Of a stretch of DNA of 32,000 nt, positions 15,115 through 16,444 are shown in pieces. Source of the stretch: Bacteroidaceae bacterium (GTDB taxonomy: Bacteria; Bacteroidota; Bacteroidia; Bacteroidales; Bacteroidaceae); the NCBI GenBank assembly GCA_963667395.2, contig CAXXJL010000001.1, forward strand, positions 1,477,329 to 1,509,328, given 5' to 3'. The first letter of the stretch is position 1, and each line of letters starts with the position of its first letter. Below the pieces are notes generated by a model, which worked only from the letters and a program-made list of their open reading frames with translations, did not search any database and was not told the origin of the DNA. The position numbers were made by a program, and so were the translations under genes.

Positions 15115-16140
15115 ATGGCAACAAATTTAGATATTCAATCATTAAAACCGGTCGTATACAGTATACCAACGGTTTCTGCCAAATTAGCTTTTTCTGATTT
15201 GACAGGTGCTTTAAAAGTGCGATTCGGCATTGGTCGGAACAATTATACTATTACGCCCGGTTTGTACAAAATTGGGAATCCTGGCAGTCAATCAGATGTG
15301 TTTGTTTCAGCTAATTATAAATTAAGCTTTGACATTCTGAGAAAGAATCTTGATTCACTGAATGCATGGATTTTGGTAGTTGATACAAAAGGTGTCAACG
15401 TTTGGTGCGCTGCAGGGAAAGGTACTTTCGGCACAGATAATATGGTAAAAAGCATTAAAAGCAGCTCATTAGAATATATTGTGAAACATCGCAGGATTAT
15501 TCTGCCACAACTTTCGGCAAGTGGTGTTGCAGCACACAAAGTAAAAGAACGAACAGGATTCAGAGCCATTTTCGGACCGGTACAGGCAAAAGATATAAAA
15601 TCATTTCTGGAAGCGGATTACAAAGCAACACCTGCCATGCGAAAAGTAACTTTCCCGATGAAAGAAAGAGGCAAACTAATTCCTGTTGATTTTATGTATT
15701 CAAGCTACAAACTACTTCTGATAATAGGCTTGTTTTTTATTTTTTCAGGTCTCGATCGCTCAGGTTTTTTATTAAAAAAAATGTTCAATACAAGCCTATT
15801 TCCATTAATCAATATTTTAGGTGGATATATTGCCGGAATAGTCGTTGCTACGTTATTTTTACCATTAATACCTTTTCGTGCATTTGCGCTGAAAGGTGCC
15901 TTTTGGGGATTAGCTTCAGCAGTTTTACTTAATAGACTATTCGACGTATCTGCCCTGGAAGGAATAAGTATGGGATTGATAAGTATTAGCATAGCATCGT
16001 TTATGACCATGAACTTTACCGGTTCATCAACCTACACTTCGCTCTCGGGTGTAAAAAAAGAAATGAAATGGGCTATCCCGTTCCAAATTACATTTATAAC
16101 ATTGGGGACAATTCTTTTCATAATTTCAAAATTAATTTGA
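15115..16140 (+). CDS. hgcA: HgcA-like membrane-anchored corrinoid protein (mercury-methylation corrinoid protein family)
   Basis: 341 aa. GVNVWCAAGKGTFG (Cys98, nt 15406-15408) is an exact match to the N(V/I)WCA(A/G)GK cap-helix signature. The N-terminal about 190 aa are soluble and the C-terminal about 150 aa hold about 5 TM helices. It is followed 1 nt later by an HgcB-like ferredoxin. Confidence 0.8.
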   Translation: MATNLDIQSLKPVVYSIPTVSAKLAFSDLTGALKVRFGIGRNNYTITPGLYKIGNPGSQSDVFVSANYKLSFDILRKNLDSLNAWILVVDTKGVNVWCAAGKGTFGTDNMVKSIKSSSLEYIVKHRRIILPQLSASGVAAHKVKERTGFRAIFGPVQAKDIKSFLEADYKATPAMRKVTFPMKERGKLIPVDFMYSSYKLLLIIGLFFIFSGLDRSGFLLKKMFNTSLFPLINILGGYIAGIVVATLFLPLIPFRAFALKGAFWGLASAVLLNRLFDVSALEGISMGLISISIASFMTMNFTGSSTYTSLSGVKKEMKWAIPFQITFITLGTILFIISKLI

Positions 16141-16141
16141 T

Positions 16142-16444
16142 ATGAAAACAATGCAATATTTAAAGAATGTAGCTACATTAAAGCTTAACAGTAATTTATG
16201 TACCGGTTGTGGAATGTGCACTATGGTTTGCCCTCATGCTGTTTTTGAAATTAATAAGGGAAAAGCACGAATTATAGACATTAATGATTGCATGGAATGT
16301 GGAGCATGTTCTAACAATTGCCAATTTGGAGCTTTAACTGTAAAATCAGGTGTAGGGTGCGCTGCAGGGATACTCAATGGTATTTTAAAAGGGACTGAAC
16401 CTTCATGCGATTGCGGAGAAGATCGTAAAAAAGATTGTTGCTAA
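16142..16444 (+). CDS. hgcB: HgcB-like 2[4Fe-4S] ferredoxin
   Basis: 100 aa. Two CX2CX2CX3C motifs ([24 protein letters not shown]), a lone Cys73 (VGCAAG) and C-terminal ...[13 protein letters not shown] ending in vicinal Cys99-Cys100. Confidence 0.8.

Follow-up and report, generated by a model that had tools for sequence, protein, structure and literature searches.

An hgcAB gene pair within an arsenic-resistance gene cluster of a Bacteroidaceae bacterium

The window, a 32,000-nucleotide stretch of DNA from a Bacteroidaceae bacterium, carries hgcA and hgcB as the seventh and eighth members of a nine-gene, same-strand ars cluster. It is probable that the encoded proteins form a Hg(II)-methylating pair whose genes lie within the ars operon and are expressed, most likely, from an ArsR-controlled, arsenic-inducible promoter. 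To our knowledge, no genes other than hgcAB are known to underlie the production of methylmercury by microbes; Bacteroidales hgcA can account for a sizeable share of the hgcA reads in some lakes. A first-pass annotation, made from the sequence letters, had described the gene pair, suggested either Hg methylation or a different physiological substrate, and recommended profile searches and structure prediction. The ars-operon setting of hgcAB was absent from that annotation and bears directly on the option of a different substrate. The two genes and the cap helix are located as follows:

15115–16140, + strand: hgcA, corrinoid protein of 341 aa (NCBIfam HgcA_corrinoid, AlphaFold2 model, Foldseek, dN/dS)
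15400–15420, + strand: cap helix, HgcA residues 96–102 (VWCAAGK), a helix in the AlphaFold2 model, with Cys98 opposite residue 374 of 2h9a
16142–16444, + strand: hgcB, 2[4Fe-4S] ferredoxin of 100 aa (NCBIfam HgcB_ferredoxin, cysteine conservation)

The hgcA ORF starts with ATG and contains GVNVWCAAGKGTFG. The cap-helix motif NVWCAAGK, an instance of the HgcA signature N(V/I)WCA(A/G)GK, corresponds to HgcA residues 95–102, and its Cys98, encoded by the TGC codon at 15406–15408, is the only cysteine of the protein; the first-pass reading of this 341-aa ORF and its motif was confirmed from the letters. HgcA passed the cut-off of the HgcA equivalog model NCBIfam NF040863 (404.9 bits, cut-off 275, E 2.4e-121), with the match extending over residues 17–340 and profile positions 1–324 of 325. 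In contrast, its scores remained below the cut-offs of the fused HgcAB-like model NF043039 (206.1 bits, cut-off 285) and the NCBIfam CdhE/CFeSP model (77.9 bits, cut-off 306). By these scores, the ORF at 15115–16140 is a true HgcA orthologue, and the separation from the Wood–Ljungdahl corrinoid protein drawn in the first-pass annotation holds. This assignment of HgcA as against its paralogues rests on the curated profile cut-offs, which were used in place of a reference tree; the neighbour-joining tree covered HgcA from related loci only, contained no named references or outgroups, and gave no support values.

HgcA is composed of a corrinoid-binding domain (residues ~44–167) and a membrane domain (residues ~197–340, nt 15703–16134). 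Residues 1–190 are free of hydrophobic segments (maximum 19-residue Kyte–Doolittle mean 1.03), and four or five such segments follow beyond residue 191. In the AlphaFold2 model (pLDDT 83.6), long helices span residues 197–210, 228–247, 257–275, 280–307, and 311–340, in agreement with the approximately five hydrophobic helices noticed earlier in the last ~150 aa. The five-helix C-terminal membrane domain of HgcA is required for activity in ND132 (Pseudodesulfovibrio mercurii, formerly Desulfovibrio desulfuricans). The best Foldseek match of the whole protein was the deposited ND132 HgcAB model 9a0b_A (E 9e-21, 40% identity, 325 columns). The recommended structure prediction yielded both the cap helix and the five membrane helices.

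[quoted passage not shown] The PDB matches of HgcA obtained with phmmer included 2h9a, 4c1n, and 4djd, and HgcA residues 44–167 aligned only with residues 318–441 of the 445 residues in the 2h9a chain of Carboxydothermus hydrogenoformans CFeSP. The corrinoid domain superimposed on the CFeSP structure 2ycl_A with 1.3 Å over 125 columns. The large subunit of CFeSP (AcsC/CdhE) thus has the same C-terminal Rossmann-like corrinoid domain and cap helix (1.3–1.7 Å, ~125 residues, 23–30% identity), but with Thr in place of Cys98 (Thr374 of 2h9a, counted along the alignment). This correspondence, together with the helical conformation of residues 96–102 in the model, supports the homology of the WCAAGK segment to the cap helix. 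Unlike HgcA, CFeSP carries a [4Fe-4S] domain at its N-terminus as well as a TIM barrel, and lacks a membrane domain.

These comparisons bear on whether the pair might not be a methylase at all, with HgcA being a CFeSP-derived or fused-type paralogue or a decaying gene. The only Pfam match of HgcA was indeed CdhD (50.1 bits, a PF03599-type corrinoid-binding domain), and relatives have been annotated earlier as 'acetyl-CoA synthase subunit gamma'. That the pair is no methylase is nevertheless exceedingly improbable, given the CdhE and fused-model scores far under their cut-offs and the membrane domain in place of the N-terminal CFeSP parts. The fused HgcAB-like proteins of NF043039 have homologous corrinoid, membrane, and ferredoxin parts, but are single polypeptides, whereas in the window HgcA and HgcB come from distinct ORFs with a stop codon between them, both scoring under 285 bits. 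Moreover, Asn95, Trp97, and Cys98 are invariant across 52 diverse HgcA proteins, and the HgcA of the window keeps all of the invariant residues. The dN/dS of hgcA is 0.07–0.21, well below 1, which indicates purifying selection and argues against decay.

The hgcB ORF begins 1 nt past the hgcA stop codon and encodes 100 aa, as had been noted. HgcB also exceeded the cut-off of its equivalog model, NF040864 (120.3 bits, cut-off 99, E 2.3e-35; residues 5–100, profile positions 1–93 of 93), and failed that of the fused-protein model NF043039 (54.6 bits, cut-off 285). On this evidence, the ORF at 16142–16444 is a true HgcB orthologue. Its cysteines are located at positions 20, 23, 26, 30, 50, 53, 56, 60, 73, 89, 91, 99, and 100, a numbering that agrees with ND132 HgcB as given in PMC7305189. 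They include the two CX2CX2CX3C [4Fe-4S] motifs (Cys20/23/26/30 and Cys50/53/56/60) and the C-terminal DCC recognised before. At the end of the second cluster motif, CQ replaces the usual CP, a feature common to most Bacteroidota relatives. Cys73 lies in GVGCAAG and is kept in all 28 aligned HgcB sequences (that of the window and 27 from related loci). It had been described as a lone cysteine; its presence was verified, but the tail holds additional cysteines in a conserved C-x-C (Cys89 and Cys91) ahead of the terminal DCC (Cys99-Cys100). All HgcB cysteines, including the terminal pair, are kept in 26 of 26 relatives with a complete C-terminus (27 aligned).

By analogy with characterised HgcAB, the cytoplasmic domain of HgcA would carry the corrinoid, its cobalt ligated on the lower side by the cap-helix residue Cys98, and the two-cluster ferredoxin HgcB would be the cobalt reductant. 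Co(I) would then be methylated by S-adenosylmethionine (SAM), and the methyl group passed to Hg(II) held by the cysteine-rich HgcB tail (Cys73, Cys89/91, and Cys99/100). SAM as the methyl donor and Co-thiolate ligation have been reported (PMC11588087), and mutagenesis in ND132 covered Cys93 and, in HgcB, Cys73 and Cys94/95 (PMC7305189). Hg methylation by the HgcAB of the window is thus suggested by analogy. No Bacteroidales organism has been demonstrated to methylate Hg (Peterson 2020 preprint), and our literature search found neither a tested Bacteroidota methylator nor HgcAB-dependent arsenic methylation beyond the cited papers.

The HgcA proteins of ND132 and the window share the corrinoid domain, the five-helix membrane domain, and the NVWCAAGK cap helix with its essential Cys. 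Their HgcB proteins share the cluster ligands Cys20/23/26/60 and Cys50/53/56/30, Cys73, and the C-terminal Cys pair. In both organisms hgcB lies directly downstream of hgcA, and an ArsR-family gene lies upstream. The two systems differ in that the identity to the deposited ND132 model is only ~40%, and in the shorter HgcB tail of the window (C-x-C plus CC) compared to the longer tails of Desulfobacterota-type loci. They also differ in gene neighbourhood. In ND132, an arsR-like gene is present, but ars structural genes are absent from the sides of hgcAB, whereas in the window arsC and acr3 flank the pair within the nine-gene cluster:

11824–12150, + strand: arsR, ArsR/SmtB-family repressor, 108 aa (NCBIfam HTH_metalloreg 65.9 bits, cut-off 55; Pfam HTH_5/HTH_20)
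12216–12449, + strand: arsE-like thioredoxin-fold protein with CxxC, 77 aa (Pfam Thioredoxin_3, 107.5 bits)
12462–12893, + strand: arsF-like protein, 143 aa (NCBIfam ArsF family, 109.7 bits, cut-off 60)
12903–13604, + strand: arsG-like DsbD_2-type membrane protein, 233 aa (NCBIfam ArsG family 315 bits, cut-off 200; Pfam DsbD_2)
13616–14677, + strand: arsP, ArsP_1-family permease, 353 aa (Pfam ArsP_1 251.6 bits; below every NCBIfam equivalog cut-off)
14683–15099, + strand: arsC, arsenate reductase of the LMW phosphatase type (thioredoxin-coupled type), 138 aa (Pfam LMWPc)
16476–17522, + strand: acr3, arsenite efflux permease, 348 aa, last gene of the cluster (TIGR00832 447.4 bits, cut-off 282.8)

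The gene order is therefore arsR-arsE-arsF-arsG-arsP-arsC-hgcA-hgcB-acr3, with gaps of 1–65 nt, and repressor, arsenate reductase, and arsenite efflux genes occur together on one strand. ArsC scored 130.9 bits against TIGR02691, under the cut-off of 174.3; members of its 90% identity cluster carry the NCBI name ArsC. ArsR contains Cys39, Cys80, and a C-terminal Cys106-Cys107 pair, a pattern kept in relatives. It is partly like that of the ArArsR type, where the As(III) site is Cys41/80/82 (PMC11868830), but it is not an exact match to any of the four types of As(III) site that have been characterised. Beyond the cluster, tilS starts at 17644 on the opposite strand, convergent with acr3. The only Rfam match in the window was a tRNA-Cys (21816–21887), with no cobalamin riboswitch, SAM riboswitch or other known RNA. 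The GC content of hgcAB (34–39%) is within the range of the flanks (35–45%) and hence shows no compositional anomaly; an origin from foreign DNA, considered on the basis of composition, was rejected.

Two sites upstream of and within the cluster resemble regulatory elements:

11782–11825, + strand: putative ars promoter/operator (TTTG, inverted repeat, -7-like box)
12162–12190, + strand: second, degenerate operator-like site (ATTGTTCG TTGTTTTG CGAATTAC) in the arsR-arsE gap, kept in the related genomes L118, L119, and L120

Bacteroidetes promoters have a -7 element with the consensus TAnnTTTG, plus a -33 element. The first site starts with a -33-like TTTG (11782–11785), followed by a perfect 12-nt inverted repeat with the arms ATATATTGTTCG (11794–11805) and CGAACAATATAT (11814–11825). 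Between the arms, TATATTTG (11807–11814) fits the -7 consensus. Palindromic arms flanking TAnnTTTG were present upstream of arsR in at least 15 related loci, where the letters of the arms vary and the palindrome is kept. In L118–L120, the operator is identical although the DNA further upstream has diverged. This design suggests that ArsR binds the palindrome at 11794–11825, and the site at 12162–12190 may have a role as a second operator. Scanning for sigma-70 promoters and intrinsic terminators produced no excess of matches over shuffled sequence; the sigma-70 model is unsuited to Bacteroidetes promoters.

No terminator-like sites were found between the genes on the + strand from 11900 to 17500. 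Together with the gene packing, this points to co-transcription of all nine genes, as predicted from sequence. With spacers of 15 nt (arsC-hgcA), 1 nt (hgcA-hgcB), and 31 nt (hgcB-acr3) and no internal terminator, co-expression of hgcAB with its neighbours is hard to avoid, and a regulatory consequence would follow whatever the origin of the pair. The promoter, with its -7 box inside an ArsR-type palindromic operator, would most likely drive the whole cluster; a trivalent arsenical or other thiophilic inducer would free ArsR, and HgcAB would be made. ArsR control and arsenic inducibility of hgcAB are thus predicted here. In ND132, hgcAB is under ArsR-like control and is induced by arsenic, and the methylation rate is not predicted by the hgcAB transcript level (bioRxiv 10.1101/2022.10.17.512643).

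If this wiring is true, arsenic exposure would raise the methylmercury potential of carriers, which is relevant to sites co-contaminated with As and Hg. The locus offers a well-defined setting in which to test whether arsenic controls hgcAB expression. It shows unusually plainly that, in a Bacteroidales clade, the pair is built into an operon for arsenic resistance, with an identifiable putative promoter/operator. Both the occurrence of hgcAB in Bacteroidales and its linkage to arsC and acr3 have already been published (Peterson 2020, McDaniel 2020, Gionfriddo 2022), so the locus adds one member to a known kind and leaves knowledge of the hgcAB system type itself unchanged. The HgcA of the window belongs to the same clade as that of the Bacteroidales MAGs and Paludibacter jiangxiensis NM7 in these papers. 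In Fig. 6 of McDaniel 2020, arsC and acr3 flank hgcAB and arsR is near, as in the window. As far as the cited papers on Bacteroidales hgcAB show, the nine-gene order, the operator/promoter design, and the exact hgcAB-less counterparts have not been described.

The best 120 HgcA matches were all Bacteroidota-like. They included many proteins from Bacteroidales, Prolixibacteraceae, and Microbacter MAGs with 64–98% identity, and those at the top, with 98%, came from metagenome contigs. The earlier statement that carriers among the Bacteroidota come largely from metagenome bins agrees with these matches and the literature. An exact-sequence query with the HgcA of the window matched no record, and one with its HgcB recovered short contigs of the same population only. 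A same-strand ars structural gene was located within 3 kb of hgcAB in 22 of 24 loci whose HgcA shares at least 60% identity with that of the window, in half of the loci at 50–59% identity (9/18), and in 6 of 51 below 50%. These counts come from tblastn with the ars proteins of the window itself, which favours close relatives, and the loci are phylogenetically non-independent. The linkage was retained in no fewer than five distinct gene orders and reached sister branches of the HgcA tree (neighbour-joining, no outgroups or support values). Identity ranks of HgcA, ArsC, and Acr3 across the loci had ranges too narrow to tell separate histories of hgcAB and ars.

The persistence of the linkage through rearrangements in the 22 of 24 close relatives, and on sister branches, would also be expected if arsenic were the selected substrate or purpose, with HgcAB working in arsenic resistance and Hg methylation as a side reaction. 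We consider this unlikely. In one version, a SAM/corrinoid methyltransferase acting on As(III) would replace the missing ArsM, and ArsP or Acr3 would export the product. The position of hgcAB between arsC and acr3, downstream of an ArsP_1-family permease, would fit such a role, and no ArsM was found among the scanned ORFs of the window. However, ArsP/ArsEFG-type genes also occur without either ArsM or hgcAB (L118–L120), the active-site residues of HgcA are the same as in HgcA clades without ars linkage, and ND132 cultures yielded no mono- or dimethylarsenicals. That this HgcA branch was recruited for arsenic resistance, as an ArsR-controlled SAM/corrinoid methyltransferase with an arsenical as its selected substrate, in the role of ArsM and with export of the product by ArsP or Acr3, appears quite unlikely. 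If true, it would make Hg methylation in widespread fermentative Bacteroidales an arsenic-induced side reaction. In the other version, HgcAB would aid As(V) tolerance by another route. The ND132 ΔhgcAB mutant is more sensitive to As(V), but its As(III) sensitivity is not raised; the induction of ND132 hgcAB by arsenic likewise favours an arsenic purpose.

Three related genomes (L118–L120) hold the whole operon without hgcAB, which likewise speaks against an arsenic purpose. Like other Bacteroidales ars operons, theirs resemble the cluster of the window in containing ArsR/SmtB, ArsF/ArsG, ArsP_1, LMWP-type ArsC, and Acr3. In these genomes, arsC is followed by a 15-nt spacer and acr3, with the gene order otherwise identical and at the same chromosomal site; the window differs in the extra hgcAB between arsC and acr3. 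The operon is thus complete without hgcAB, which is therefore dispensable for it. The difference amounts to a single segment:

15115–16475, + strand: presence/absence segment of 1361 bp (hgcA, hgcB, and the hgcB-acr3 spacer), defined by comparison with L118, L119, and L120

The ars operons of the three genomes are 94–99% identical at the nucleotide level, whereas the adjacent tilS is only 80–87% identical, a contrast suggesting that the operon was exchanged between species in recent times. Such mobility, together with the clean segment boundaries and the patchy presence of hgcA among related Bacteroidales (Peterson 2020), could mean that the ars operon is a permissive, often exchanged landing site and that hgcAB merely hitch-hikes, its linkage reflecting shared mobility only. 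An ISL3 transposase gene 4.5 kb downstream would be in line with this. We regard hitch-hiking as very unlikely, as the linkage has outlasted many gene orders and is no single frozen cassette, hgcA is under purifying selection, the composition is without anomaly, and the tight packing entails co-expression whatever the origin. A Hg(II)-methylating pair under putative arsenic-responsive control is our preferred reading.

At the segment ends, the first 12 nt of hgcA (ATGGCAACAAAT) are similar to those of acr3 (ATGGAAACAAAA), and the lineage without hgcAB may have lost the pair through a microhomology-mediated deletion. As L118–L120 represent one group, the event may have been either a gain or a loss of hgcAB. 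The N-terminus of HgcA was also considered as an acr3-derived recombination scar; this was ruled out, as MAT-x-L-(D/N) is native to related HgcA proteins. Versions of the operon that have or lack the 1361-bp segment provide a defined contrast for a possible role of HgcAB in arsenic tolerance.

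The 341-aa HgcA-like ORF (15115-16140) was confirmed to contain GVNVWCAAGKGTFG, as the first-pass annotation had claimed, with the TGC codon of Cys98 at 15406-15408. Cys98 is the sole cysteine of the window HgcA. [quoted passage not shown] Its only Pfam match was the generic CdhD domain, which explains the label 'acetyl-CoA synthase subunit gamma' that some relatives still bear. In a PDB search, HgcA residues 44-167 aligned to the large subunit of C. hydrogenoformans CFeSP (2h9a; residues 318-441). Counted through this alignment, Cys98 lies opposite residue 374 of 2h9a, and the WCAAGK segment is thus homologous to the CFeSP cap helix, which bears out the earlier cap-helix assignment. 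The AlphaFold2 model of HgcA (36 homologues in the input, pLDDT 83.6) places residues 96-102 in a helix and has five long helices in its C-terminal part, in keeping with the predicted membrane domain. Its top PDB match was the deposited HgcAB model of the mercury methylator Pseudodesulfovibrio mercurii ND132 (9a0b_A; E 9e-21, 40% identity over 325 columns), and CFeSP structures superposed on the corrinoid domain at 1.3-1.7 A over about 125 columns.

The HgcB-like ORF (100 aa, 16142-16444) follows hgcA after one spacer base and passed the NCBI equivalog model HgcB_ferredoxin with 120.3 bits (cut-off 99). It carries the hallmarks previously read from it, namely cluster motifs Cys20/23/26/30 and Cys50/53/56/60, Cys73 and the terminal Cys99-Cys100. 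The cluster ligands and Cys73 are numbered identically in ND132 HgcB (Cooper et al. 2020, PMC7305189). Two features were absent from the first-pass annotation: a conserved C-x-C in the tail (Cys89, Cys91), and the end of the second cluster motif, which is CQ and not CP. A CP-less end is the rule in Bacteroidota relatives. When 16142-16444 was aligned with 27 loci, most Bacteroidota had C(Q/R/K/E) at the end of the second motif, and CP was confined to some Bacteroidota and some Desulfobacterota-type sequences. The HgcB tails were clade-dependent: the ars-linked Bacteroidota tail is short (E-P-(S/T)-C-(D/G)-C, ~7 residues, CC), and the Desulfobacterota-type tail has (S/N)CCC followed by ~25 residues and a GCC end.

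An exhaustive search among 1.84 billion cluster representatives detected 1655 relatives of the protein (E <= 1e-30 in 425). In an alignment of the window HgcA with 51 of them, 35-50% identical and each scoring best with the HgcA model, N95, W97 and C98 were invariant and V96, A99, A100, G101 and K102 nearly invariant; the window HgcA retains them all. The dN/dS of hgcA was 0.07-0.21 against close and more distant relatives. Within the reach of sequence evidence (profile results, retained residues and dN/dS values), a non-methylating paralogue and a decaying gene are both excluded. Both hgcA and hgcB are intact and conserved, and purifying selection acts on them.

The pair sits within a same-strand run of nine genes from arsR to acr3:

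11824-12150, plus strand, arsR
12216-12449, plus strand, arsE-like (77-aa Thioredoxin_3 protein with CxxC)
12462-12893, plus strand, arsF-like
12903-13604, plus strand, arsG-like
13616-14677, plus strand, ArsP_1-family permease
14683-15099, plus strand, arsC (LMWP type)
15115-16140, plus strand, hgcA
16142-16444, plus strand, hgcB
16476-17522, plus strand, acr3

The successive intergenic gaps are 65, 12, 9, 11, 5, 15, 1 and 31 nt, and a terminator scan found no terminator-like sites between these genes on the plus strand. Upstream, a strong bidirectional terminator (11301-11337) ends the preceding genes; downstream, tilS is convergent with the cluster. The arsE-like thioredoxin-fold gene, between arsR and arsF, is easily overlooked at a 100-aa ORF threshold, and an antisense 130-aa ORF that overlaps it (12164-12556), with no family match, is probably spurious. 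Directly upstream of arsR are two genes, one for an NMO/FabK-like FMN oxidoreductase (10136-11278) and one, divergent, for an ABM monooxygenase of 95 aa (11344-11631, minus strand).

A perfect 12-nt inverted repeat (11794-11825; ATATATTGTTCG, 8 nt, CGAACAATATAT) directly precedes arsR and runs into its start codon. The spacer of the repeat and the end of its first arm read TATATTTG, which matches TAnnTTTG, the Bacteroidetes -7 consensus. TTTG occurs 21 nt upstream of this -7-like box, and the whole element spans 11782-11825. It is identical to that of three related genomes, and the sequence further upstream is unalignable. A second, weaker operator-like copy between arsR and arsE is likewise conserved. 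The same layout, with palindromic arms around TAnnTTTG, was found upstream of arsR in loci of relatives, including L006-L014, L019, L021, L030 and the following:

L003, 2938-2959
L004, 2680-2701
L015, 2615-2636
L016, 1734-1755
L017, 2589-2610

The arms differ by lineage (TGTTCG/CGAACA, TGTCG/CGACA, TGACG/CGTCA, TTTCG/CGAAA) and stay self-complementary, so both sides change together. The ars promoters of Bacteroidota have one design in common, and it looks as if an ArsR operator co-varies with its repressor. An ArsR operator overlapping its own promoter would look like the element in the window, to which ArsR presumably binds. The cysteines of the window ArsR (Cys39, Cys80, terminal Cys106-Cys107) are partly like, but not identical to, the recently described ArArsR type (Cys41/80/82; PMC11868830).

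From this anatomy, hgcAB would share a transcript with the ars genes, controlled by ArsR, and HgcAB would therefore be made in response to a trivalent arsenical. There is a precedent in ND132, where hgcAB is under an ArsR-like regulator and its expression is raised by arsenic (Gionfriddo et al. 2022 preprint). HgcA is known to bind its corrinoid with Cys-thiolate ligation, the reduced cobalt being methylated by SAM (PMC11588087), and ND132 mutagenesis showed that HgcA Cys93 and HgcB Cys73 are required, as is at least one C-terminal Cys (PMC7305189). Counterparts of all of these are present in the window proteins. By analogy with the characterised homologues, HgcA would hold the corrinoid via Cys98, SAM would methylate the reduced cobalt, HgcB would supply electrons and the methyl group would pass to Hg(II).

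Linkage was surveyed by tblastn with the window proteins in 31 genome and 80 metagenome loci carrying HgcA relatives; a locus counted as linked when hgcAB had an ars structural gene within 3 kb on its own strand. A linked gene was present in 22/24 loci with at least 60% HgcA identity to the window, 9/18 with 50-59% and 6/51 below 50%, in a survey whose queries favour close relatives, whose search leaves out ArsB, ArsM and Grx-type ArsC, and whose loci are mutually related, so that Fisher p-values for these counts are not true probabilities. In a neighbour-joining tree (without support values), the linked loci make up the Bacteroidota branch together with its sister groups; a few isolated cases lie elsewhere. 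By the counts, linkage is close to universal in the window's branch. Gene order varies among linked loci: the compact form is arsR-arsC-hgcA-hgcB-acr3, and the full nine-gene form occurs in L013-L017 (Microbacter and other Bacteroidota MAGs). Elsewhere, hgcAB precedes arsC-arsP (L003), hgcAB-acr3 precedes arsR (L010), acr3 precedes hgcAB (L011), or the order is arsR-hgcAB-arsF-arsG-arsP (L030). The closest named genome match (L001, JAENWI010000026.1; 81% HgcA identity) is a contig of 12 kb binned into a Peptostreptococcaceae MAG. All its genes in arsC-hgcA-hgcB-acr3 resemble those of Bacteroidales, which suggests a mis-binned contig or recent transfer.

The same operon without hgcAB (arsR-arsE-arsF-arsG-arsP-arsC-acr3) was found on three long contigs of one ENA assembly, with proteins labelled 'uncultured Bacteroides sp.':

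L118, 6141-10476
L119, 2141-6476
L120, 2141-6476

They share the chromosomal flanks of the window, with ABM upstream (and NMO as well in L118 and L119) and tilS and feoB downstream. In L120, a group II intron-type reverse transcriptase (RVT_1, GIIM; 1-764) replaces the NMO gene. In all three, 15 nt separate arsC and acr3; between window and L118, nucleotide identity is 81-87% on both sides of an unmatched segment of 1361 bp (15115-16475). The three operons share 94-99% nucleotide identity and group together, so the pattern is accounted for equally well by one insertion or by one deletion. It agrees with the published patchiness of hgcA between closely related Bacteroidales (Peterson et al. 2020 preprint). 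The adjacent tilS genes are only 80-87% identical, which suggests that species recently exchanged the whole ars operon at a fixed site in the chromosome.

A less likely alternative is that arsenic is the selected substrate, for instance through methylation in place of the ArsM that the operon lacks, with export of the product by ArsP. It is made attractive by the ars linkage, which is tight and persists through rearrangements; against it, ND132 produces no methylarsenicals, the raised sensitivity of its hgcAB mutant is limited to As(V), and operon versions without hgcAB exist. Hitch-hiking of hgcAB with a mobile ars operon is possible for its origin, but the regulatory consequence of the gene packing stands regardless.

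Bacteroidales hgcAB have been in the literature since 2020, including those of the isolate Paludibacter jiangxiensis NM7, and the methylation phenotype was then unconfirmed in any member (Peterson et al. 2020 preprint); we found no later test in the literature. Flanking of hgcAB by arsC and acr3, with arsR nearby, was reported by McDaniel et al. 2020 (PMC7438021) and discussed by Gionfriddo et al. The window pair was therefore correctly identified and is of an already known kind, unsurprising to a specialist. The additions here are the full nine-gene operon, the conserved promoter/operator design, the linkage counts and the exact hgcAB-less counterparts, and the locus offers a tidy start for asking whether arsenic controls methylmercury production and what HgcAB natively does.

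A tRNA-Cys (GCA) gene (21816-21887) lies some 4.5 kb beyond the cluster on its downstream side; next come an ISL3-family transposase gene (21999-22952, minus strand) and a 129-aa ORF of no known family (22957-23346). A plus-strand open frame with a signal-peptide-like start (29043-32000, >986 codons) continues past the window end.
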